Of a DNA stretch of 64,000 nucleotides, positions 3,106 through 20,359 are shown piece after piece. The notes beneath the pieces are model-generated. The model searched no databases, had not been told where the DNA came from, and saw nothing but the letters and a program-made list of their open reading frames with translations. Origin of the DNA: Escherichia phage vB_EcoM_Ozark. The DNA lies in the sequence record NC_054927.1, one strand, 5' to 3'. Each line of letters begins with the position of its first letter. Within the stretch, counting starts at the first letter, position 1. The translations under genes and the position numbers were made by a program.

Positions 3106-3384
3106 TCAAAATGTAATTTCTAACCAATCACCATCACGCTGATCACTATTGACTTTAAAGCTAAATCCTTCTTTTCTCAGCCAATCACCAATTTCTTCAG
3201 TAATCAATTTATCACGAGCAATACAATAATAATTAAAATGTGTTTTACCTTGTTCAGCTGCTTTATTAGCAAGTTCCGAAAAATCTTTAATAAAACATTC
3301 TAGCTTAAACTGTTTACTTTTGAATGCTTTTTCGCGTAATTGATTAGCAAAAGATGCATTTTCATAAAGATCATACTGTTCCAT
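3106..3384 (-). CDS. Hypothetical protein (position of T4 24.2)
   Basis: 92-aa ORF with ATG start, packed between rnlB and next gene. Confidence 0.55.
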   Translation of the reverse strand: MEQYDLYENASFANQLREKAFKSKQFKLECFIKDFSELANKAAEQGKTHFNYYCIARDKLITEEIGDWLRKEGFSFKVNSDQRDGDWLEITF

Positions 3385-3586
3385 TTTTCACCTTTTTATT
3401 GATATGTCTTTTTCTATAGACAACTTTTTCTCGAGTTTCAAATTTATTCTTAGCAGTCATAGCTCGAGCCCATAATACAGCCACTTCTTTTGCCTGTAAG
3501 TTTAATTCACGAGCAATTTCAATGAATGACTTTCCAGACTCATGAAGAGTAAACACCACAACCTCAGTTCTCATAATCAATCTCAT
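3371..3586 (-). CDS. Hypothetical small protein with helix-turn-helix-like segment (position of T4 24.3)
   Basis: 71-aa ORF; segment IEIARELNLQAKEVAVLWARA resembles an HTH. Confidence 0.5.
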   Translation of the reverse strand: MRLIMRTEVVVFTLHESGKSFIEIARELNLQAKEVAVLWARAMTAKNKFETREKVVYRKRHINKKVKNGTV

Positions 3587-3675
3587 GTTATCGAGTTGGT
3601 GCCATTATATACATCATTTTCTGATTGTGTTTTGTGTGCTTTCAAAATGAAGAAAGGGGCCGAAGCCCCTTATGA

Positions 3676-4806
3676 TTATGGATAGGTATAGATGATACCA
3701 GTTTCTAAAGCAGTTTTATGAATGATGTATCCATTACGCGATTCTTGAACATCAACTTCTGGATAGTCTTTCATCATCTTCTGAAGAGTGTAACGATGCA
3801 AGTAGTACTTACTATCTGGATCGTCAGTTTTCCAATCTTTACCTTCTTCGGTCATTTTTTGGATTTCATCCATAACCCACCAACCGCACCAGATGTAAGC
3901 TGAAGTACGATGTGGAAGAGGATGAACATAAGGTAATTCACCTTCTGGTTCTGGAGCAACTTTATCAGTTACCTGAACTTGACCTGTTGCTGTAATAGTT
4001 TTGCTATCATAATCAGCAGCAGTAACAGTTGCAGTAACTTCAATAGTTTGACTTCCAACAGATGAAGTATCAACGGTATATACATTAGTTGACCCTTCTA
4101 CAGGAGAAGAATCTTTCTTCCATGAATAAGTAATTTGCGCTTCTTCTGGAGCATCAGTAACATTAGCAGTAAATGTAGCCGAAGCATCTTGCTGAACGTT
4201 AATAGAAGGAGGAGTCAATGTAACCTGTGGATTCATTGTCTTCTTATTAACCGTTAATGATACTTCATTAGAAGTAACTTCCTTTGCATCATAATCAGCC
4301 GCGGTTACTTGGGCTACGCATTTAATTCTTTTTACTCCACTTGTAGTTGGAGTATAGCTAAATGTAGAGTTAGTTTCTCCACCAACTTGTGAATCATCTA
4401 CATACCACTGATACGTAGCAGACGCTCCAACGGGTTGAGAAGCTAAGGCAGCGGTAAATTCAACAGCTGTTCCAATCACTCCAGCAGCAGGACTATCAGG
4501 AGTTACTGCCAAGGTAGTCGTTTGTGTCTTATTTTGAACTGTGATAGTTGTTGTCGCTTCAGCCGTTTCCGGGCCTCCTTCAGAAAGTGTATTTGTTGCA
4601 ACTACTTTAATAGTCTTTTGACCGGCAGGTCCTTTTAGTACATAACTAAAAGTTGCTTCAGCTCCATCTTGTGGAGCATCATCTACAATCCAAGCATATG
4701 TAATAGTTCCGCCTCCAGTTTCACCACTGGGTGTAGCAGTAAACTGCTGAGTCTGATCTATAACTCCAGTAGGTGTTTTAGGAGTTATATCAACTGTAAA
4801 AGCCAT
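3676..4806 (-). CDS. hoc: Highly immunogenic outer capsid protein Hoc
   Basis: 376 aa, T/S-rich repeated Ig-like segments; synteny between 24.x and inh. Confidence 0.85.
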   Translation of the reverse strand: MAFTVDITPKTPTGVIDQTQQFTATPSGETGGGTITYAWIVDDAPQDGAEATFSYVLKGPAGQKTIKVVATNTLSEGGPETAEATTTITVQNKTQTTTLAVTPDSPAAGVIGTAVEFTAALASQPVGASATYQWYVDDSQVGGETNSTFSYTPTTSGVKRIKCVAQVTAADYDAKEVTSNEVSLTVNKKTMNPQVTLTPPSINVQQDASATFTANVTDAPEEAQITYSWKKDSSPVEGSTNVYTVDTSSVGSQTIEVTATVTAADYDSKTITATGQVQVTDKVAPEPEGELPYVHPLPHRTSAYIWCGWWVMDEIQKMTEEGKDWKTDDPDSKYYLHRYTLQKMMKDYPEVDVQESRNGYIIHKTALETGIIYTYP

Positions 4807-4815
4807 AAGTTATCC

Positions 4816-5496
4816 TTATTTTAATGTTACGAAAGAAGAATTGCGTGTTTCACGAATTAAAACTGATCCGTCACGGTTAATGTAATAAATTAAGCTAAAT
4901 AAAGTTTGGTGTGCTGACGCATGCTCAAAACTTGTTGGGTGAGATTTCCAATCCGGAGTTTCAGCAATCCATTGATAAATCCACCAAGGAACAGTGCAGA
5001 ATCCTGGATTTTTTCCAATCAGCTGAAGATTCGGACTAAAGTTTTCCGGAAGAGTAAATACAGACGGCTTTTCAGATTCAATAATCTCAGCTACAGCTTG
5101 TTCGAATTTTTCTTCAACAAAAGGAGTATCTTCAATCAAAACATCGGTATTTTCAGGAATTTTATCCTTTTCTACTACTTCAATTTTAATGTCAGATTTA
5201 ACCGGAGAATCAATCAAAAGTGCTGCTTCTGGATTGACTTCTTCATCGTCATATTTTAATCCCTCTGCGGCATCAGCAGCATCAATTAAGTCTTTAATAG
5301 ATAACCCATCAGTCTCTGGCATAGGTTCACTAGCGAGCTTCTGGAGGGCTTCTTCAATATCAACAACGATATTATCAAAAGATTTATTCTTTTTGACCTT
5401 TATACCAAACTGTTCAGCGTATTCAGCTAATTTAGCTTTAGCTTCTTTATTATCATCAAGAGCCTTCAGCTCTGCAATATAATCTTTATCTATCAT
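4816..5496 (-). CDS. inh: Inh, inhibitor of prohead protease
   Basis: 226 aa, acidic; position and length as T4 inh. Confidence 0.75.
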   Translation of the reverse strand: MIDKDYIAELKALDDNKEAKAKLAEYAEQFGIKVKKNKSFDNIVVDIEEALQKLASEPMPETDGLSIKDLIDAADAAEGLKYDDEEVNPEAALLIDSPVKSDIKIEVVEKDKIPENTDVLIEDTPFVEEKFEQAVAEIIESEKPSVFTLPENFSPNLQLIGKNPGFCTVPWWIYQWIAETPDWKSHPTSFEHASAHQTLFSLIYYINRDGSVLIRETRNSSFVTLK

Positions 5497-5546
5497 AATA
5501 TTTCCTCAGTATAAATATAGATATATTTATTACATGGTATTTAGAC

Positions 5547-7058
5547 ATGACTGACATTAAAGTACATTTTTATGATTTTAGTCACGTGAGAATTGATTGT
5601 GAAGAAAGTACATTTCATGAACTCCGTGATTTCTTTAGCTTTGAAGCTGATGGGTATCGTTTTAATCCGAAATACAAATATGGCCACTGGGATGGACGAA
5701 TCCGTCTTTTAGATTATAATCGTCTTCTTCCATTCGGCTTAGTCGGGCAAATTAAAAAGTTCTGTGATAACTTTGGCTATAAAGCCTGGATTGACCCACA
5801 AATTAACGAAAAAGAAGAATTATCAAGAAAAGATTTTGATGAATGGCTTTCTAAATTAGAAATCTATTCAGGAAATAAAAGAATTGAACCACACTGGTAT
5901 CAAAAAGATGCAGTGTTCGAAGGATTAGTTAATCGTCGTAGAATTCTTAATCTTCCAACATCCGCAGGTAAATCGTTAATTCAAGCTTTGCTTGCGCGAT
6001 ATTATTTGGAAAATTATGAAGGTAAAATTCTTATCATTGTTCCAACAACTGCCTTAACAACTCAGATGGCTGATGACTTTGTTGACTATCGTTTATTCAG
6101 TCATGCAATGATAAAGAAAATTGGTGGCGGAGCATCAAAAGATGATAAATATAAAAATGATGCACCAGTCGTTGTTGGTACATGGCAAACTGTAGTTAAA
6201 CAACCGAAAGAGTGGTTCTCCCAATTTGGAATGATGATGAATGATGAATGTCATCTTGCTACAGGAAAAAGTATTTCATCTATCATATCAGGTTTAAATA
6301 ACTGCATGTTCAAATTTGGTCTATCTGGTTCATTACGTGATGGCAAAGCCAATATCATGCAGTATGTTGGAATGTTTGGTGAAATATTTAAGCCAGTAAC
6401 GACTTCTAAATTAATGGAAGATGGACAAGTAACTGAGCTAAAAATTAATAGTATTTTTCTTCGCTATCCCGATGAGTTTACTACTAAATTAAAGGGAAAA
6501 ACTTACCAAGAAGAAATAAAAATTATTACTGGGCTTAGTAAAAGAAATAAATGGATCGCTAAATTAGCTATTAAGCTTGCACAAAAAGATGAAAACGCTT
6601 TTGTCATGTTTAAACATGTATCACATGGTAAAGCTATTTTCGATTTAATTAAAAATGAATACGATAAAGTTTATTACGTATCAGGGGAAGTTGATACCGA
6701 AACTCGAAACATAATGAAAACCTTAGCTGAAAACGGTAAAGGAATAATTATAGTAGCTAGTTATGGTGTATTTTCTACTGGTATTTCAGTTAAAAATCTG
6801 CATCATGTTGTTTTAGCGCACGGTGTTAAATCTAAAATTATTGTATTGCAAACAATAGGTCGTGTATTACGTAAGCATGGTTCTAAAACAATCGCAACGG
6901 TCTGGGACCTCATTGATGATTGCGGTGTTAAGCCAAAATCTGCTAATACAAAAAAGAAATATGTTCATTTGAACTATCTTTTAAAACACGGCATTGATCG
7001 TATTCAGCGCTACGCAGATGAAAAATTTAATTACGTAATGAAAACAGTTAATTTATAA
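5547..7058 (+). CDS. uvsW: UvsW helicase
   Basis: 503 aa; Walker A LPTSAGKS, DECH box MMNDECHLA, SF2 helicase motifs. Confidence 0.9.
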   Translation: MTDIKVHFYDFSHVRIDCEESTFHELRDFFSFEADGYRFNPKYKYGHWDGRIRLLDYNRLLPFGLVGQIKKFCDNFGYKAWIDPQINEKEELSRKDFDEWLSKLEIYSGNKRIEPHWYQKDAVFEGLVNRRRILNLPTSAGKSLIQALLARYYLENYEGKILIIVPTTALTTQMADDFVDYRLFSHAMIKKIGGGASKDDKYKNDAPVVVGTWQTVVKQPKEWFSQFGMMMNDECHLATGKSISSIISGLNNCMFKFGLSGSLRDGKANIMQYVGMFGEIFKPVTTSKLMEDGQVTELKINSIFLRYPDEFTTKLKGKTYQEEIKIITGLSKRNKWIAKLAIKLAQKDENAFVMFKHVSHGKAIFDLIKNEYDKVYYVSGEVDTETRNIMKTLAENGKGIIIVASYGVFSTGISVKNLHHVVLAHGVKSKIIVLQTIGRVLRKHGSKTIATVWDLIDDCGVKPKSANTKKKYVHLNYLLKHGIDRIQRYADEKFNYVMKTVNL

Positions 7059-7083
7059 GGGCTTCGGCCCTTTGGAGAAAAAG

Positions 7084-7314
7084 ATGTTACTAGAATTTAA
7101 ACAATTTCTTTATGAAGCTTCTATTGATGAATTTATGGGTAAAATTGCCTCTTGTCAAACATTAGAAGGTTTAGAAGAACTTGAAGCTTATTATAAGAAA
7201 AGAGTCAAAGAAACTGAATTAAAAGATACTGATGACATCTCAGTCAGAGATGCTTTGGCAGGAAAAAGAGCTGAATTAGAAGATTCAGACGATGAAGTAG
7301 AAGAAAGCTTTTAA
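7084..7314 (+). CDS. uvsW.1: UvsW.1 small acidic protein
   Basis: Track ORF begins at TTG 7072; ATG at 7084 preceded by GGAGAAAAAG gives 76 aa; hairpin separates it from uvsW. Confidence 0.65.
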   Translation: MLLEFKQFLYEASIDEFMGKIASCQTLEGLEELEAYYKKRVKETELKDTDDISVRDALAGKRAELEDSDDEVEESF

Positions 7315-7369
7315 ATTAAAAAAGGCCCAACCAAAAAGGAAGGGCCAAAACTATAGACTAAAGGTCACA

Positions 7370-7537
7370 CTATAGCAAAAGTTGTGTTTCATTTAATTGT
7401 TCTTCCGAACTTTCTGAAACTGGTAGTTCTTTAATGTAATTATAGCAAGGCCCAGGATGTACAGGACCTTTGTCTGTTTCAACAACCAATGCAGAATCGA
7501 TTGGAGTTTTACAGACAACACAAATCTTATCTGACAT
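7370..7537 (-). CDS. Small Cys-containing ORF (55 aa; position of T4 uvsY.-2), below ORF-track size cutoff
   Basis: Hand-translated MSDKICVVCKTPIDSALVVETDKGPVHPGPCYNY...; coordinates approximate. Confidence 0.35.
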   Translation of the reverse strand: MSDKICVVCKTPIDSALVVETDKGPVHPGPCYNYIKELPVSESSEEQLNETQLLL

Positions 7538-11269: not shown

Positions 11270-11747
11270 AGAAGTTTCTATTCCTAAAATGGGTCTTAAA
11301 CACTATAACATTTTAAAAGATGTTAAAGGTCCTGATGAAAATTTAAAACTTCTTATTGATTCTATTTGTCCGAATTTATCACCGGCAGAAGTTGATTTCG
11401 TTTCTATTCATTTATTGGAATTTAATGGAAAGATTAAATCTCGTAAAGAAATAGATGGTTATACTTATGACATTAATGATGTTTATGTGTGCCAAAGATT
11501 AGAATTTCAATACCAAGGAAATACATTTTATTTTAGACCTCCTGGAAAATTTGAACAATTTTTAACGGTGAGCGATATGTTATCCAAATGCTTGCTTAAG
11601 GTCAATGATGAAGTTAAAGAAATTAATTTTCTTGAGATGCCAGCATTCGTTTTAAAATGGGCAAATGACATTTTTACAACTTTAGCAATTCCTGGCCCTA
11701 ATGGTCCAATAACTGGAATTGGCAATATTATTGGATTATTTGAATGA
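11214..11747 (+). CDS. 28: Baseplate hub distal protein gp28
   Basis: 177 aa; starts inside the 3' end of gene 27 in another frame. Confidence 0.75.
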
Positions 11748-13516
11748 AAAAGCCACAAGAAATGCAAACAATGCGTAGAAAAGTTATTTCAGATAATAAA
11801 CCAACACAGGAAGCGGCTAAATCCGCTTCCAACACTTTATCTGGACTTAACGATATATCTACGAAATTGGATGATGCTCAAGCTGCTTCTGAGTTAATTG
11901 CTCAAACTGTCGAAGAAAAATCGAATGAAATAATTGGAGCAATTGACAACGTAGAAAACGCAGTGAGTGATACTACTGCTGGTTCTGAGTTAATTGCTGA
12001 AACTGTCGAAATTGGCAATAATATTAATAAAGAAATCGGTGAATCACTCGGGAGCAAATTAGATAAATTAACGAGTTTACTAGAGCAAAAAATTCAGACA
12101 GCCGGAATTCAACAAACAGGAACTAGTTTAGCCACGGTTGAAAGCGCTATTCCTGTTAAAGTTGTTGAGGATGATACAGCTGAATCTGTGGGTCCTTTAT
12201 TACCAGCTCCTGAAGCAGTTAATAATGATCCTGACGCTGATTTTTTCCCTGCCCCTCAGCCAGTTGAACCCAAACAAGAATCACCAGAAGAAAAACAGAA
12301 AAAAGAAGCATTTAACTTAAAATTATCTCAAGCTTTAGATAAATTAACAAAGACAGTTGATTTTGGATTTAAGAAATCCATTTCAATTACTGATAAAATA
12401 TCAAGCATGCTATTTAAGTACACCGTTAGTGCTGCTATTGAAGCTGCTAAAATGACTGCAATGATATTGGCTGTTGTTGTTGGAATAGACCTTTTGATGG
12501 TTCACTTTAAATACTGGTCAGGTAAATTTTCACAAGCCTGGGACTTGTTTAGTGCAAACTTTACTAAATTCTCTAGCGAAACCGGAACATGGGGTCCTTT
12601 ATTACAGAGCATCTTTGGTTCTATTGATAAAATTCAACAATTTTGGGAAAAGGGAGATTGGGGCGGATTGACGGCAGCTATCATAGAAGGACTCGGAAGT
12701 GTTCTTTTTAATTTAGGAGAGCTTATTCAATTAGGCATGGCTAAATTATCTGCTGCAATTCTTCGAGTCATTCCTGGCATGAAAGACACTGCTGATGAAG
12801 TAGAAGGAAGAGCACTGGAAAATTTCCAAAATACTACTGGAGCATCTCTCAATAAAGAAGACCAGGAAAAAGTTGCAAATTATCAGTACAAAAGAATGAA
12901 TGGAGACCTTGGTCCAATAGCAAAAGGATTAGACAAAATTGCGAACTGGAAAACTCGTGCATCTAACTGGATTCGTGGTGTAGATAATAAAGAAGCACTA
13001 ACATCTGATGAAGAGAGAGCAGAGGAAGAAGAAAAATTAAAGCAGCTTTCTCCAGAGGAAGCTAAAATTGCTTTAATGAAAGCTAATGAAGCTCGTGCTG
13101 CTATGAATCGTTTTGAAAAATATGCTGATTCAGCTGATATGAGTAAAGACTCAACGGTTAAATCTGTTGAATCTGCCTATGAAGACCTTAAAAAACGGAT
13201 GGATGACCCGGATTTAAACAATTCACCGGCAGTTAAAAAAGAACTTGCTGCTAGATTTTCTAAAATTGATGCTACTTATCAAGAGCTCAAGAAAAATCAG
13301 CCTAATGCCAAACCTGAAACTTCTGCTAAATCGCCAGAAGCGAAACAGGTCCAAGTTATTGAAAAGAACAAAGCACAGCAAGCTCCTGTTCAGCAAGCAT
13401 CTCCTTCAATCAATAATACTAATAATGTTATTAAGAAAAATACTGTCGTTCATAATATGACACCTGTCACAAGCACAACTGCTCCTGGTGTATTTGATGC
13501 GACTGGAGTTAATTAA
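11744..13516 (+). CDS. 29: Baseplate hub / tail length determinator gp29
   Basis: 590 aa; hydrophobic central segment. Confidence 0.85.
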   Translation: MKKPQEMQTMRRKVISDNKPTQEAAKSASNTLSGLNDISTKLDDAQAASELIAQTVEEKSNEIIGAIDNVENAVSDTTAGSELIAETVEIGNNINKEIGESLGSKLDKLTSLLEQKIQTAGIQQTGTSLATVESAIPVKVVEDDTAESVGPLLPAPEAVNNDPDADFFPAPQPVEPKQESPEEKQKKEAFNLKLSQALDKLTKTVDFGFKKSISITDKISSMLFKYTVSAAIEAAKMTAMILAVVVGIDLLMVHFKYWSGKFSQAWDLFSANFTKFSSETGTWGPLLQSIFGSIDKIQQFWEKGDWGGLTAAIIEGLGSVLFNLGELIQLGMAKLSAAILRVIPGMKDTADEVEGRALENFQNTTGASLNKEDQEKVANYQYKRMNGDLGPIAKGLDKIANWKTRASNWIRGVDNKEALTSDEERAEEEEKLKQLSPEEAKIALMKANEARAAMNRFEKYADSADMSKDSTVKSVESAYEDLKKRMDDPDLNNSPAVKKELAARFSKIDATYQELKKNQPNAKPETSAKSPEAKQVQVIEKNKAQQAPVQQASPSINNTNNVIKKNTVVHNMTPVTSTTAPGVFDATGVN

Positions 13517-13524
13517 GGAATAAT

Positions 13525-14619
13525 ATGGCAATTGTTAAAGAAATAACTACTGATTTAATTAAAAAGTCCGGTGAGAAAATTTCAGCCGGACAGAGCACTA
13601 AATCAGAAGTAGTAACTAAAACATACACTGCCCAGTTTCCAACTGGGCGTGCTAGTGGTAATGACACTACAGGGGACTTCCAGGTAACAGATCTATATAA
13701 GAATGGATTATTATTTACTGCATACAATATGTCATCTAGGGATTCTGGAAGTCTTAGATCGATGAGATCTAACTACTCTTCTTCATCTTCGAGTATTTTA
13801 AGTACAGCTAGAAACACTATTAGTAGTACAGTATCAAAACTATCAAATGGATTAATATCAAATAATAATTCAGGAACAATAAGTAAAGCTCCTGTCGCAA
13901 ACATTCTTTTACCGAGATCTAAATCTGATGTTGACACATCATCACATAGATTTAATGATGTTCAAGAAAGCCTTATTAGTAGAGGCGGAGGTACTGCTAC
14001 TGGTGTGCTAAGTAATATTGCTTCAACCGCAGTATTTGGGGCACTGGAAAGTATAACACAAGGTATAATGGCTGATAATAATGAGCAGATTTATACGACA
14101 GCCAGAAGTATGTACGGTGGCGCTGAAAATAGAACTAAAGTGTTTACATGGGATTTGACTCCACGTTCAACAGAAGATTTAATGGCTATTATTAATATCT
14201 ATCAGTATTTTAACTATTTTTCTTATGGTGAAACAGGTAAATCTCAATATGCTGCTGAAATAAAGGGGTATTTAGATGATTGGTATCGTTCTACGTTAAT
14301 TGAACCTTTATCTCCGGAAGACGCAGCTAAAAATAAAACACTATTTGAGAAAATGACAGCAAGTTTAACTAACGTTCTAGTGGTTTCAAACCCGACAATT
14401 TGGATGGTGAAAAACTTTGGTGCAACATCTAAGTTTGATGGAAAAACGGAAATATTTGGCCCATGCCAAATACAGAGCATTAGATTTGATAAAACACCTA
14501 ATGGTAACTTTAACGGATTAGCTATTGCTCCAAACCTCCCTAGTACATTTACTCTCGAGATTACTATGAGAGAAATTATCACGTTAAACCGTGCTTCTTT
14601 ATATGCGGGGACTTTTTAA
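13525..14619 (+). CDS. 48: Baseplate tail-tube junction protein gp48
   Basis: 364 aa; synteny. Confidence 0.85.
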   Translation: MAIVKEITTDLIKKSGEKISAGQSTKSEVVTKTYTAQFPTGRASGNDTTGDFQVTDLYKNGLLFTAYNMSSRDSGSLRSMRSNYSSSSSSILSTARNTISSTVSKLSNGLISNNNSGTISKAPVANILLPRSKSDVDTSSHRFNDVQESLISRGGGTATGVLSNIASTAVFGALESITQGIMADNNEQIYTTARSMYGGAENRTKVFTWDLTPRSTEDLMAIINIYQYFNYFSYGETGKSQYAAEIKGYLDDWYRSTLIEPLSPEDAAKNKTLFEKMTASLTNVLVVSNPTIWMVKNFGATSKFDGKTEIFGPCQIQSIRFDKTPNGNFNGLAIAPNLPSTFTLEITMREIITLNRASLYAGTF

Positions 14620-15584
14620 TGTATTCTTTAGAGGAATTTAATAATCAAGCAATAAACGCAGATTTCCAACGTAATAATATGTTTAGCTGCGTTTTTGCAA
14701 CAACTCCATCAACTAAAAGCTCTTCGTTGATAAGTTCAATTAGCAACTTTTCTTATAATAACTTGGGCCTAAATTCAGATTGGTTAGGATTAACTCAAGG
14801 CGATATTAATCAGGGAATTACTACGCTAATTACAGCTGGCACACAAAAACTGATAAGAAAATCAGGGGTTAGTAAATATCTTATTGGTGCCATGAGTCAA
14901 CGTACAGTTCAAAGTTTATTAGGCTCGTTTACAGTTGGTACATATTTAATTGACTTCTTTAACATGGCATATAACTCATCTGGATTGATGATATATTCTG
15001 TAAAAATGCCAGAGAATAGATTATCCTATGAAACTGACTGGAACTATAATTCTCCTAATATTCGTATAACTGGGAGAGAATTAGATCCTTTGGTTATTTC
15101 ATTTAGAATGGATTCAGAAGCTTGTAACTATCGTGCAATGCAAGACTGGGTTAACTCTGTTCAAGACCCAGTAACTGGATTACGTGCTTTGCCACAAGAT
15201 GTCGAGGCAGATATTCAGGTTAATCTTCATGCTCGTAATGGATTACCTCATACTGCGGTGATGTTCACCGGATGCATTCCAATATCAGTGAGCGCTCCTG
15301 AGTTATCATATGATGGAGATAACCAAATAACTACATTTGACGTTACTTTTGCGTATAGAGTGATGCAGGCTGGAGCAGTTGATAGACAAGCTGCGCTTGA
15401 ATGGCTTGAATCTGCTGCTATAAATGGTATTCAAAGCGTTCTCGGAAATAGTGGAGGTGTTACTGGACTATCTAATTCGCTTTCACGGCTTAGTAGATTA
15501 GGAGGGACTGCAGGAAGCATTTCAAACATTAATACTATGACAGGGATTGTCAATTCGCAGAGTAAAATATTAGGAGCAATATAA
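14619..15584 (+). CDS. 54: Baseplate tail-tube initiator gp54
   Basis: 321 aa; synteny. Confidence 0.85.
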   Translation: MYSLEEFNNQAINADFQRNNMFSCVFATTPSTKSSSLISSISNFSYNNLGLNSDWLGLTQGDINQGITTLITAGTQKLIRKSGVSKYLIGAMSQRTVQSLLGSFTVGTYLIDFFNMAYNSSGLMIYSVKMPENRLSYETDWNYNSPNIRITGRELDPLVISFRMDSEACNYRAMQDWVNSVQDPVTGLRALPQDVEADIQVNLHARNGLPHTAVMFTGCIPISVSAPELSYDGDNQITTFDVTFAYRVMQAGAVDRQAALEWLESAAINGIQSVLGNSGGVTGLSNSLSRLSRLGGTAGSISNINTMTGIVNSQSKILGAI

Positions 15585-15588
15585 CAAT

Positions 15589-15606
15589 GGGGACCGAAAG
15601 GTCCCC
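15589..15606. terminator. Hairpin ggggaccgaaaggtcccc after gene 54
   Basis: Perfect palindrome with GAAA loop then T-run. Confidence 0.55.
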
Positions 15607-15612
15607 ATATTT

Positions 15613-15903
15613 TTATTTACGGAATGAAATAAAAGCAGCAACTGAAGCAACTAAACTGTCTTCAATATAAACTTCAATTTTTACCGGAGCTTCTGACTCA
15701 AATTTACCTGTTACTACACCCTGAAAAATACTTTCAGTCTGTTCTGGCTTTGAAAAATTTTCAGAAGGAAAAATTCCGAACTTTTTATCTGTTCCAAAAA
15801 TTTTAATAAATTCATCGTAAACTGCTTCATTAAAAGCATTATCAGCAGGAATAACGCCTTCAACTACAAGTTCTTGACCTAAAAAGCGCAAAGAAGATTT
15901 CAT
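15613..15903 (-). CDS. Hypothetical protein (position of T4 alt.-3)
   Basis: 96-aa ORF, ATG with GAGGAA RBS, just downstream of the repeated early promoter cassette. Confidence 0.6.
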   Translation of the reverse strand: MKSSLRFLGQELVVEGVIPADNAFNEAVYDEFIKIFGTDKKFGIFPSENFSKPEQTESIFQGVVTGKFESEAPVKIEVYIEDSLVASVAAFISFRK

Positions 15904-15910
15904 TTTGTGT

Positions 15911-15964
15911 TCCTCATGTTATGTCAGTAAGACTACTATAACACAACACGAGAGACTTGTAAAC
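15911..15964 (-). promoter_or_regulatory. T4-type early promoter plus leader, 54-nt cassette copy A
   Basis: On minus strand: GTTTAC -35, 18-nt spacer, TGnTATAGT -10, leader ending in GAGGAA RBS; 52/54 identical to 31129-31182. Confidence 0.6.
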
Positions 15965-18021
15965 TACATTTTGAACTTTTTAGACATTCCGTTAATGTTA
16001 ACCAAAGAAGCTAAGATTTGAGAAACTTCGTTTTCCTCTTCTTTTGATTCTTCTACAAGGAATTGATTAAATCCAGTCATTGGACGAACTTCACCAGTTT
16101 CCATTAGATGGTCGCCATCATATACTGATTCCTCTAATTGTTCAGAAGGAGGAACGATTGTACCTTCTATTAGATACTTGTTATAAGCAGTTTCTTTCAT
16201 AAAGTACGTACTTACTTTATTAATCTTCAGTAAAATTCCGCGCGGTAGAATAACTTCAGCTTCTGATGGAAATCCTGATAAATGACCTGGAACGATAACT
16301 TTGATTCGCTCAGCTCCTTTAATTACCATACCCACGCTAGTTTCAGCATCTTCATTAGCATATGTAGAATGACTACCCATATGCATCAAATCTTCTGCAT
16401 CAACGGAACCTTCTCCTTCACCAGAAAATACTGCACCGGAATCATCTAGAGCCATATAGTTTTTACCATGCTCACCGAAGATATTTGGTTTAAGCGATGT
16501 GGATACGAAGTTCTTGAAATAGAACATTTTATTTTCAATGTTATGACGCAAAGTTTTAAAGGTAACTTCTTGTCCACGGTAAAGTGTAGTTCCTGGAGGA
16601 AGAACTGATCCTTTGGCAAAGGCAGAATCCAACGTCTCGATGTGCTTAATAGCTCGTTCCATGTATTCTTCACGGGTAGAATCTGGTTTACCCAAAAGGA
16701 ACGAGTTCATTTCAACATATGAATCTGCACAATAATCTTCAATTACATCAGATTCAGCTTGGGTTAGTCCTTTTGGAGTTACTTCGGTGCTTGCGTATTC
16801 ATATGCCTGAGCAGCAGATTCATTAATCAATTTATAAATGCCATTCATTACAAATTGAATAATAGCTGTCTTTTCATCTGGCGTAGCTTTAGAACCTTTA
16901 ACTAAATCATTAATAATTTTCTTAATAACATCAAAGCTATTAGAAATATTAATGTCAGCAAGATCGCTTAAAATTTTATCAGTTTTATAATCAAAGAATT
17001 CTTTATTCTTTAAATATTCTTGAGAACCTTGATATGTTATATCGCTCTGCAACTTGATGGATGGATCACGTAAACGTGCATGGGCTAATGCAATGTGATT
17101 TCGGAAGTTTTCTAGTTCATAATCGCTAGATTTAAAACGAGAAGCACTCCTCATGCCACCGATAGCTCCTTTGCTGAAGTTTGAACCAATCTGAATAACG
17201 CCAGAGTTCATTGGTCCTTCTGCTTTATATACCGGAACTTTAGATTCAAACTCTTGATATTTCTTAGCAGCGAAGCTATCACCCTGAAGTGAAGCATCAA
17301 CAGTAGAATATTGAGCTTGTGCTGCTAATCGACGACTAATTTTAGTTTTCTGAATAACAGCTTGGTCCGTGCGCTTATCATTTTCTAAAGCAATAGAAGC
17401 AGCAACAGCAACAGCTTTAGGAACAGCATTACCTGTTTTAATGTCTACATAAACATCACCAACCTTCGATTCAACTTTTGTGAATAACTCAGTTGAAATA
17501 GGAGGTACACCTGGAATGTCTTCTAAATTGGCATTTTTACGGTAAACCATAATATATGCATATTTCTTATCATAGTCCCAGATTTCCTTTAAAAGAACAT
17601 ATCGACCTGCTCCTTTAGTACGTACTAAACGGTCAGCAATAACTTGCATTTGACGAGCTGCGCCATTTGTTTTACTTTTTAGTACGCGGAATAGGCATGC
17701 GTCGATTTTATACTGTTTCATTGTTTGAAGAGCAGTATCAAAAACAGCATTAATGACGCCAATTGGATTTCCACCCAAGTTTCTAAGCTTAACCAGTGAT
17801 AATTTCTCGTTGACACCTATCATTACGATATGCATCATTTTATCGCCTGGCTTAACGTTTTTATTTGTATCACCGCCAGAGGTGTATGTACAAAATCTAA
17901 ATCCAGGAAGCACACTTTCTTCACCAGCTTGAATAGCAAAAATTTGTGGTATTTTATGCTTAGGATTTAAGTTAACAACCGGCGCCGAAGCGCCGTCAAA
18001 TAATTCTGTAATAAGTTCCAT
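15964..18021 (-). CDS. Alt-family ADP-ribosyltransferase, paralog 1
   Basis: 685 aa; C-terminal ART motifs YRG, STS, EAEVILPRG; N-terminal about 230 aa nearly collinear with the upstream paralog. Confidence 0.8.
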   Translation of the reverse strand: MELITELFDGASAPVVNLNPKHKIPQIFAIQAGEESVLPGFRFCTYTSGGDTNKNVKPGDKMMHIVMIGVNEKLSLVKLRNLGGNPIGVINAVFDTALQTMKQYKIDACLFRVLKSKTNGAARQMQVIADRLVRTKGAGRYVLLKEIWDYDKKYAYIMVYRKNANLEDIPGVPPISTELFTKVESKVGDVYVDIKTGNAVPKAVAVAASIALENDKRTDQAVIQKTKISRRLAAQAQYSTVDASLQGDSFAAKKYQEFESKVPVYKAEGPMNSGVIQIGSNFSKGAIGGMRSASRFKSSDYELENFRNHIALAHARLRDPSIKLQSDITYQGSQEYLKNKEFFDYKTDKILSDLADINISNSFDVIKKIINDLVKGSKATPDEKTAIIQFVMNGIYKLINESAAQAYEYASTEVTPKGLTQAESDVIEDYCADSYVEMNSFLLGKPDSTREEYMERAIKHIETLDSAFAKGSVLPPGTTLYRGQEVTFKTLRHNIENKMFYFKNFVSTSLKPNIFGEHGKNYMALDDSGAVFSGEGEGSVDAEDLMHMGSHSTYANEDAETSVGMVIKGAERIKVIVPGHLSGFPSEAEVILPRGILLKINKVSTYFMKETAYNKYLIEGTIVPPSEQLEESVYDGDHLMETGEVRPMTGFNQFLVEESKEEENEVSQILASLVNINGMSKKFKM

Positions 18022-18024
18022 GAT

Positions 18025-20118
18025 TTATCCTTGAACGAACTTGTAAGGCATGTTTGTAATATCTATGCAAGACGCAATAATTCCAAGAGATGATTCTACT
18101 TTCTGTTTAACATTTGATGAAACAAATGATGCAAAGTCAACTCTATCTTCTATTTCAATACCACCAGTCATTGCAACTACTTCGCCGGTTTCCATTAAAC
18201 GGTCTCCGTCATAGATTACCGATTCGGTGAGTTCTTCTGTGGTCATAACTTCAGCTTGAATGAGTTTTGTATTATTAGACGTGGTTCCGTCATTATTAGA
18301 AGCATCAGTTATTTTATTAACTTTAACCATCAATCCGCGCGGTAGAATAACTTCAGCTTCTGTTGCTATTCCGAGACTTCCTGGATATACAACATTAACT
18401 TTATGAGCTCCATCAATTGCCCATCCTATTTGAACTTTAACGTATTCAGGATTTTCTTTATACGCTCTTATTTCGTTTGGATTAATAGTTATTCCTTCTT
18501 CATTTTTATCAACCGTTAATTCGTTACGAGCTTCTGGTTCTAAAAGACCAATACCAGCATGTGTAATTCCAAAACGCCCAAAAATGATAGGAGTTAAAGA
18601 AGTAGATACAAAATTTCTGAAATAGAACACTTTATTTTTAACTAGCGCTTCGTATATAGGAGCAGTCATACTTTGAGCACGATAAACTGTAATGCCTTCC
18701 GGTATGCGGTCACCATTTTCAAAAGCTGAATCTAAATTATTTATAGCAGATTCAATTTCTTTTTCACTCATTACATCATATCGTTCTGGATTGTAACGAC
18801 CTAAAAGAAGATTATTGATGTCAGTATATCCTGAACCACAATACTCTCTAATGCCGCGCTTTTGTGATGGAGTATATTTAGAACCATCACGGGCAATAGT
18901 AATATCAATCATTGGACCTGCACCAATTCCAGAAAAACTATAAATCATTCTTTTGAGGAATTTAGTTTTTGCTGCGTTCCAGGAATTTTTAGTCATTTCT
19001 TCCCAGACTTCATCTTGCTGCCCTTTACGAGTTTTATTATGTTTATCAAGCCAATTATCTTTATATTCTTCAAAGAATTTATTAATAGCTGCTGCGTATT
19101 TCTCTAAACATTTTATTGAAGTAGTTGGTTCATTTTTTATCGCGTTAAAAATTACATCTTTAATTTTTTCGGAAACTTCATTAACCTCACTTTTTGAAAA
19201 GAATTTATAGTCATAGTGAAGTTCATTCGCAGTTCCTTCGGCAATAATTTTTGCTGCCTTAGTTTTAGAAGCTAATGAATTAATTCCAAGCTTCATTTCT
19301 TCTGCTTCGGGAATTAAAGGAGCGGTAGCGGGTTTATTGAAATTAGCTGCGGTAGATTCATACTTCTGAAATAATTCACTTTCAAATCTAGAAGATTCCA
19401 ATGACTGACTTTGTGCAATTGCTCTACGGGAAATTTTAACTTTAACGATTACAGCTTGATCAGAACGTTTATCATTTTCTTGCGCAATAGATGCTGCAAT
19501 TGCCTCATTTTTAGTTACTTGAGCTCCAGTATCTTTATTGATATAAACATCACCGACCTTCGATTCAACTTTAGTAAAGAGCTCGGTACTAATTTCCGGA
19601 ACCCCTGGAATGTCTTCTAGTGATACATTTTTGCGATGTATAAGAATATATGCATACTTTTTATCGTAATCCCAGAGTTCCTTAAGAAGGACGTATCTGC
19701 CACCTGAACGACTACGGATAAGTCTATCAGCAATAACCTGAATTTGTCGAGCTTGACCAGCGGTTTTAGACTTAAGAATACGAAGCATACAGGCATCAAT
19801 TTTATACTGACGCATTGTTTGCATTGCAACAGTAAAAACTGAATTGATATAATTAATTGGGCTTGAACCAAGACCTTTCAATTTAGCAATTGAACCTTTA
19901 GCAGTTAATGTAAAAGGAACAATATGCATCATTTTATCGCCCATCTTTAAATCGCGATTAGTATCACCTCCAGATGTATAGGTACATAAACGAAAGCCTG
20001 GTTGTTCAATTGCGTCATCAACATGAACTGAAAAAATTTGTGGTATTTTCTTCTTTGGATTTAAGTTTGTAATCGGAAGAGTAGTATCTTCGTCAAATAA
20101 TTCTGTAATGAGTTCCAT
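18025..20118 (-). CDS. alt: Alt-family ADP-ribosyltransferase, paralog 2 (the copy adjacent to gene 30)
   Basis: 697 aa from second ATG (MELITELF); motifs YRAQ, STS, EAEVILPRG; late promoter upstream. Confidence 0.8.
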   Translation of the reverse strand: MELITELFDEDTTLPITNLNPKKKIPQIFSVHVDDAIEQPGFRLCTYTSGGDTNRDLKMGDKMMHIVPFTLTAKGSIAKLKGLGSSPINYINSVFTVAMQTMRQYKIDACMLRILKSKTAGQARQIQVIADRLIRSRSGGRYVLLKELWDYDKKYAYILIHRKNVSLEDIPGVPEISTELFTKVESKVGDVYINKDTGAQVTKNEAIAASIAQENDKRSDQAVIVKVKISRRAIAQSQSLESSRFESELFQKYESTAANFNKPATAPLIPEAEEMKLGINSLASKTKAAKIIAEGTANELHYDYKFFSKSEVNEVSEKIKDVIFNAIKNEPTTSIKCLEKYAAAINKFFEEYKDNWLDKHNKTRKGQQDEVWEEMTKNSWNAAKTKFLKRMIYSFSGIGAGPMIDITIARDGSKYTPSQKRGIREYCGSGYTDINNLLLGRYNPERYDVMSEKEIESAINNLDSAFENGDRIPEGITVYRAQSMTAPIYEALVKNKVFYFRNFVSTSLTPIIFGRFGITHAGIGLLEPEARNELTVDKNEEGITINPNEIRAYKENPEYVKVQIGWAIDGAHKVNVVYPGSLGIATEAEVILPRGLMVKVNKITDASNNDGTTSNNTKLIQAEVMTTEELTESVIYDGDRLMETGEVVAMTGGIEIEDRVDFASFVSSNVKQKVESSLGIIASCIDITNMPYKFVQG

Positions 20119-20141
20119 CATATCCTCTCTAGTGTTTATTC

Positions 20142-20149
20142 TATTTATA
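20142..20149 (-). promoter_or_regulatory. Late promoter TATAAATA upstream of alt
   Basis: TATAAATA on minus strand about 20 nt before the alt start codons. Confidence 0.55.
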
Positions 20150-20170
20150 AAATTAAAGGCCCGAAGGCCT

Positions 20171-20359
20171 TTAATAATCTATTGGTAAGAGAGTACGATA
20201 TATTTCAAACTTTGGACCTTTTTCATAAGCATCAAAAGTTTCTGTGAATTTATTATAAGCATATGCATCTATAAATTCAATCATGATTTGTGATACAGAA
20301 GTAGAAACATCTCCACCTTCTTTTTGAGCCACGACAATTGTTTCTAAGTAAGCTTTCAT
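20171..20359 (-). CDS. Hypothetical 62-aa protein translationally coupled to DNA ligase
   Basis: ATG overlaps the ligase TGA (ATGA); followed by hairpin aaaggcccgaaggccttt. Confidence 0.5.
   Translation of the reverse strand: MKAYLETIVVAQKEGGDVSTSVSQIMIEFIDAYAYNKFTETFDAYEKGPKFEIYRTLLPIDY

Follow-up and report, generated by a model that had tools for sequence, protein, structure and literature searches.

The 64,000-nucleotide (nt) stretch of DNA analysed here, which we call the window, comes from Escherichia phage vB_EcoM_Ozark (NC_054927.1), a Tequatrovirus (T-even phage), and carries two tandem genes of the Alt family of ADP-ribosyltransferases (ARTs) on its minus strand, to which the coordinates below refer unless stated otherwise. 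The order on that strand is DNA ligase (gene 30), alt.1, alt, alt.-2 and alt.-3, so that both Alt-family genes lie between gene 30/alt.1 and the baseplate gene 54, downstream of a late promoter. According to the open reading frame (ORF) list and alignment, the upstream gene, alt (18025..20118; 697 amino acids plus the stop), is the ortholog of T4 Alt, with 70% identity overall. The downstream gene, alt.-2 (15964..18021; 685 amino acids plus the stop), is a full-length second Alt paralog, as judged from the ORF list, the alignment and a ratio of nonsynonymous to synonymous substitution rates (dN/dS) of 0.042. An earlier reading of the sequence, hereafter the original prediction, had described adjacent full-length Alt-family ORFs of 685 and 697 amino acids, separated by 3 nt and preceded by a late promoter, with R / S-T-S / E-x-E motifs in both, nearly collinear N-termini and divergent middle regions, and each of these points is borne out by the ORF list, alignments and sequence matches given below.

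The ORF list also allows a longer reading of alt (18025..20121, 698 amino acids) that opens with ATG-ATG. We take the second ATG, at 20118, to be the true start because it has the better spacing, 5 nt past GAGG, because the RB32 and T4 annotations begin at MELITE, and because the first ATG is replaced by AAC in phage Ec_O157kw. At the other end of the gene, the stop codon TAA (18027-18025) is followed by the 3-nt spacer 'atc' (18022..18024) and then directly by the ATG of alt.-2 (18021), whose Shine-Dalgarno sequence, AAGGA, is located 6 nt 5' of that ATG, within the 3' end of alt. We compared this locus among eight phages, namely the window, T4, RB32, T6, SH7, G28, PEC04 and Ec_O157kw, and found that the late promoter, the Shine-Dalgarno sequence and the junction are kept in all of them, the junction being identical throughout, T4 included.

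The two proteins are clearly homologous, with 41% identity end to end and an E value of 9e-163, far beyond chance, but the similarity is unevenly distributed. In alt numbering, residues 1-6 are 100% identical, residues 7-238 are 67% identical, residues 239-410 only 15%, residues 411-634 35%, and the C-terminal tail 45%. Both match phrog_802 ('Alt-like RNA polymerase ADP-ribosyltransferase') over their entire length (5e-256 and 5e-272) as well as PF03496 (ADPrib_exo_Tox; E values of 2.1e-37 and 5.8e-20), with ADPrib_exo_Tox scores of 71.9 and 128.8 bits, above the Pfam gathering cut-off of 23.4; neither is matched by any NCBIfam model. The N-terminal domain (amino acids 7-238) corresponds to PF26846 (Tevenvirinae_ADPRT), at 19405..20100 in alt, where it is 99% identical to T4 Alt, and at 17308..18003 in alt.-2. 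This assignment was based on precomputed Pfam matches to 98%-identical cluster representatives and on called genes, together with the 67% identity to Alt, and the PF26846 and PF03496 pair is also present in the precomputed matches of close relatives. In alt.-2, the N-terminal domain is followed by an all-helical middle (amino acids 239-415; 16777..17307) and by the ART domain (amino acids 416-631; 16129..16776).

The catalytic residues are present in both copies. In alt, they are Arg480 (18679..18681), S505-T-S507 (18598..18606) and E587-A-E589 (18352..18360), and in alt.-2, R482 (16576-16578), S507-T-S509 (16495-16503) and E587-A-E589 (16255-16263), while the corresponding T4 Alt motifs are R478, S503-T-S505 and E574-M-E576 in RefSeq numbering. 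A T4 Alt mutant named E577A has been reported to be catalytically dead (PMC11404850); this name does not fit the RefSeq glutamates 574 and 576, apparently because the published work numbers the residues with an offset. All 13 full-length relatives that we aligned retain the motif positions, and among 60 family representatives, hardly any variation is seen at the serines of S-T-S and the glutamates of E-x-E. An AlphaFold2 model of alt.-2 (mean predicted local distance difference test, or pLDDT, of 74) presents a mixed alpha/beta N-terminal domain, the all-helical middle, the ART domain and a low-confidence tail. When the modelled ART domain was compared with the PDB using Foldseek, the best match was Vis (3e-07), followed by C3, CDTa, iota and VIP2, all with a probability of 1.00 and with a template modelling score (TM-score, by target) of around 0.6. 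A sequence search of solved structures found none for alt.-2 or for any other member of the Alt family, and only weak CDTa/iota-like matches for the alt ART domain.

The Alt proteins share their catalytic fold and motif triad with the R-S-E toxins C3, VIP2, iota, CDTa and Vis, but they are only around 15-19% identical to them, their S-T-S and E-x-E motifs lie around 40 residues farther apart, and they have propeptides as well as N-terminal and middle domains that are specific to phages. In both copies, 77-79 residues separate S-T-S from E-x-E, forming a long loop that is unrelated in sequence between the two and more acidic in alt.-2, with a net charge of -7 versus -3 in alt. Such differences would fit distinct substrate surfaces, and, since the divergence between the copies is greatest in the middle region and in this loop, their target preferences probably differ. 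For comparison, T4 ModA and ModB have been assigned, like Alt, to the Alt/VIP2 clade of R-S-E ARTs (PMC5512222). The phage head injects Alt but neither of these two (PMC5512222), which are early products (PMC2988021).

T4 Alt (NP_049811, 682 amino acids; 5455-7503 in the T4 segment compared) is a head-packaged NAD+:arginine ADP-ribosyltransferase, and the upstream gene of the window resembles it in its position between alt.1/gene 30 and gene 54, its late promoter, its R/STS/ExE motifs and its two sites for gp21. The T4 protein belongs to the prohead core, with about 40 copies per head (PMC9026906), and gp21 cleavage at ITE-6 and LTE-619 reduces it to 68.2 kDa (PMC5694885), which is exactly the mass that we compute from these sites on the T4 sequence. 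It is then injected with the DNA and modifies Arg265 of the RNA polymerase alpha subunit and other host proteins (PMC2988021). Both window proteins keep the MELITE N-terminus, with I-T-E at residues 4-6, and both have an L-x-E just ahead of a conserved SV(I)YDGDxLMETGE block. In alt, this is L630-T-E632 (18223..18231), the counterpart of LTE-619 in T4, followed by a predicted C-terminal propeptide of 65 residues; in alt.-2, it is L629-E-E631 (16129-16137), also a predicted gp21 site, followed by a predicted propeptide of 54 residues (15967..16128) that is of low confidence in the model. Cleavage of both proteins by gp21 is therefore predicted, and it would leave mature proteins of 70.2 kDa for alt and 69.2 kDa for alt.-2. 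The motifs at both ends (ITE-6 and an L-x-E around 55-65 residues from the C-terminus) are found in all 13 full-length relatives.

The Tevenvirinae_ADPRT domain itself is rare, with 69 representatives among 1.8 billion proteins, and always N-terminal. We considered whether it could be a general delivery module fused to other effectors, but 58 of the 60 longer proteins that carry it, including the two from the window, also carry the PF03496 ART domain, which excludes this idea and marks it as an Alt-specific module. A word-indexed search with the domain was uninformative, giving only 6 matches, mostly fragments. Some proteins have the domain without an ART: for instance, a 323-amino-acid protein of Salmonella phage Melville and other T4-like phage proteins of 320-380 amino acids contain only Tevenvirinae_ADPRT and are nevertheless annotated as ADP-ribosyltransferases.

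A T4-type late promoter, TATAAATA (20142..20149), was found by sequence match 31 nt 5' of the alt ATG. It lies at the same distance in six relatives and at 36 nt in T4, which has a 5-nt insertion. Immediately upstream, past alt.1, is a G+C-rich hairpin, AAAGGCC-TTCG-GGCCTTT (20150..20172), that is annotated as a terminator in phage G28 and that our consensus terminator scan overlooked owing to its short T-run. This hairpin probably stops upstream transcription, in which case the late promoter would be the start of the alt unit. At the other end, between gene 54 and alt.-3, the scan found a bidirectional hairpin terminator (15587..15608, both strands), also annotated in G28, and on the minus strand it found no terminator-like site from the late promoter to this hairpin. 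The best explanation of this arrangement is that the locus forms one putative late unit composed of the late promoter, alt, alt.-2, alt.-3 and the terminator. A second TATAAATA is present inside alt, at 18745-18738, 717 nt 5' of the alt.-2 start. It is kept in all 6 compared phages with the T2-type alt allele and is absent from T4 and SH7. We do not regard it as a promoter of alt.-2's own, given that it is conserved only with the T2-type allele, falls within a coding region and represents a motif that occurs 15 times in the window against 9 expected, a slight enrichment at most; it may merely be a by-product of coding for S-A-I-N-N.

At a dS of about 0.1-0.3 across six phages, dN/dS was 0.042 in alt.-2 and 0.061 in alt, and it was low in every domain of both genes, which indicates strong purifying selection and is contrary to what a pseudogene would show. 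In the window and six relatives, alt.-2 was of full length with intact catalytic and cleavage motifs in 7 out of 7 sequences. The downstream gene of the window is the same 685-amino-acid protein as alt.-2 of RB32, T2 and T6 (e.g., YP_803136, 'Alt-like RNA polymerase ADP-ribosyltransferase'), with DNA that is 97-98% identical, the same position and the same 3-nt junction, and nothing material differs. About 400 phage records contain the part of alt.-2 that is deleted in T4, at an identity of at least 90%, and its annotation as another Alt-like ADP-ribosyltransferase is widespread. T2, T6, RB3 and RB32 are among these phages, and the gene is intact in all four. More broadly, a tblastn search gave Alt-family matches in 1,220 phage records, with two Alt-family places per record also seen in several other T4-like genera, and alt.-2-like sequences are present in JS10 and KM16. 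Full and partial duplications of alt were already noted by Nolan et al. in 2006 (PMC1524935). Thus, the two-copy layout is the usual, already annotated Tequatrovirus state, and T4 is the exception.

The original prediction had left open whether T4 has a second intact copy, and the answer is no: beside alt, T4 has only a remnant formed by two small ORFs, alt.-1 (61 amino acids; phrog_23015) and alt.-2 (67 amino acids; phrog_15247), interpreted by the T4 annotators as an ancient duplication of the beginning of alt. This segment matches the initial ~350 nt of the second copy in the window at nearly every base. The T4 junction, GCGTACTAAAAAGTTCAAAATG, joins two sites that each bear the 9-bp direct repeat CTAAAAAGT in the window, where both repeats are intact (17682-17674 and 15983-15975), 1,699 bp apart; the corresponding positions in the compared T4 segment are 5105-5113. 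In addition, T4 is short by one A in an A-run, resulting in a 1-nt frameshift. The repeat-flanked loss of 1,699 bp together with the lost A therefore makes T4 a deletion derivative of the two-copy state. The GenBank notes for RB32 and T6 speak of an 'apparent insertion in alt.-2', a label that this comparison shows to be mistaken, as it is T4 that carries a deletion.

Taking these observations together, we consider it most likely that alt and alt.-2 encode two functional arginine ADP-ribosyltransferases that are made late, processed by gp21, packaged in the head and injected, and that they probably differ in target preference. Each protein would begin with the 6-residue propeptide MELITE, followed by a basic conserved N-terminal domain (Tevenvirinae_ADPRT) that would place it in the prohead scaffolding core, a variable helical middle, and a C3/VIP2-type R-S-E arginine ART domain with a C-terminal propeptide of 54-65 residues. 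Both would be synthesized late, incorporated into the prohead core, cut back by gp21 at each terminus to about 70 and 69 kDa, retained in the head and injected along with the DNA, and they would then use NAD+ to ADP-ribosylate host proteins on arginine prior to any phage gene expression. For the second copy, we infer expression, packaging, injection, activity and targets from the features described above. The original prediction that both copies are co-expressed late and packaged is strengthened, short of proof, by the terminator-free stretch, the kept N-terminal domain and the gp21 motifs.

Several observations weigh against this interpretation. T4 grows well without alt.-2, and in 16 metagenomic contigs, the gene is split by a frameshift into ORFs of 273 and 415 amino acids (positions 3183-5248 in one of the contigs), a second, independent route of loss beside the T4 deletion; there must therefore be some hosts, at least, on which alt.-2 is not needed. 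A role of the N-terminal domain in packaging would follow only from its conservation and its near-constant pairing with an ART, and the S-T-S/E-x-E loop of the model is only moderately confident, which weakens structure-based arguments about targets. Furthermore, our literature search for work on the second copy, or for proteomic detection of alt.-2 in virions, returned only the T4 annotation note and the report of Nolan et al. Given the 1.7 kb lost in T4, the split copies and the fact that alt itself is non-essential in T4 (PMC9026906), one could propose that the second copy is a redundant duplicate that is turning into a pseudogene and has no role in infection. We find this very improbable, as a dN/dS of 0.042 at a dS of about 0.2, low in each domain, a full-length ORF with all its motifs in every one of the seven sequences, and the presence of the T4-deleted part in so many records are not expected of a decaying gene.

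It could also be that alt.-2 is expressed and active yet unpackaged, acting late in the producing cell, or that it is mainly a structural protein of the core. Packaging has been demonstrated for T4 Alt alone, and Alt has also been described as a core protein (PMC11404850), but the N-terminal domain, MELITE and the C-terminal L-x-E / SVYDGDxLMETGE block are kept between the copies, and these are the features that accompany head incorporation and gp21 processing in T4 Alt, so we consider it improbable that the second protein stays behind. The proposal that both enzymes hit the same targets, with the duplication just raising the injected dose, seems unlikely rather than far-fetched, given that the active-site strand E-A-E-V-I-L-P-R-G is identical in the two copies and the context of the R and S-T-S motifs is the same. 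Nevertheless, identity falls to 15% in the middle region and 35% in the ART domain, the paralogs are old, as the alt.-2-like sequences of JS10 and KM16 and the paired matches in several T4-like genera attest, and each copy is conserved separately, while selection for dosage alone would favour homogenization. Two packaged enzymes with probably different target preferences remain our preferred reading, and it is possible, although we propose it only tentatively, that Alt.-2 is a second injected effector with host targets of its own, such as a defence or stress protein instead of RNA polymerase.

Alt is a classic case of an enzyme injected alongside phage DNA, and the functional work on it comes nearly all from T4, which is unusual in having one intact copy. 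Most phages of the T2/T6/RB32 type in all likelihood inject two different ADP-ribosyltransferases, the first of which has at least two alleles, and, given this variety, what T4 has taught about the early takeover of the host may not hold for its relatives. If Alt.-2 did have its own set of targets, its loss in T4 and the swapping of alt cassette alleles would reflect host-specific arms races, and would help explain differences in host range or defence sensitivity between T4 and T2/T6. As a genome feature, the tandem pair is ordinary and already annotated, but the second enzyme is an accessible candidate for a role in host takeover or counter-defence.

The allelic variation of alt is concentrated in a cassette (18260..19390, from the DNA identity profile against T4) that covers the helical middle and most of the ART domain. 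Identity to T4 DNA is 40-75% inside the cassette and 92-99% outside it, with sharp breakpoints near 19390 and 18260, and at the protein level, the window alt is 99% identical to T4 Alt at residues 7-238, 31% at 239-410, 67% at 411-634 and 92% in the tail. Thus, the window carries the T2/RB32 cassette allele and not that of T4. This allele is common to 329 phage records, and the T4-type allele coexists with an intact alt.-2, for instance in phage G4507. At least two common alt alleles circulate among Tequatroviruses, and, since the T4-type allele can be found beside an intact alt.-2, the cassette and the second copy assort independently.

A metagenomic gene located directly after alt.1 (contig positions 4001-6061) is of the Alt type in its first ~105 residues and of the Alt.-2 type in the rest. 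Such a hybrid is what one would expect from unequal crossing-over of the two tandem genes, although the contig ends 29 nt past the gene, and an assembly chimera is an alternative.

The final gene ahead of the terminator, alt.-3 (15613..15903; ORF list and Pfam), encodes a DUF5498 protein of 96 amino acids, and mutants with a C-terminal extension of this protein have been found to enable T4 to escape from the CmdTAC defence system (PMC11618068). The gene is preceded by a 60-nt gap (15904-15963) with a good early-promoter-like site (GTTTACA, 17 nt, TATAGT), and alt.-3 may thus be transcribed on its own too. Beyond the terminator, gene calls place genes 29, 48 and 54 on the plus strand (11744-15584). 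On the other side of the locus, alt.1 (20171-20359; 62 amino acids) matches PF24647, 'Phage blade protein', with an E value of 7.5e-29.

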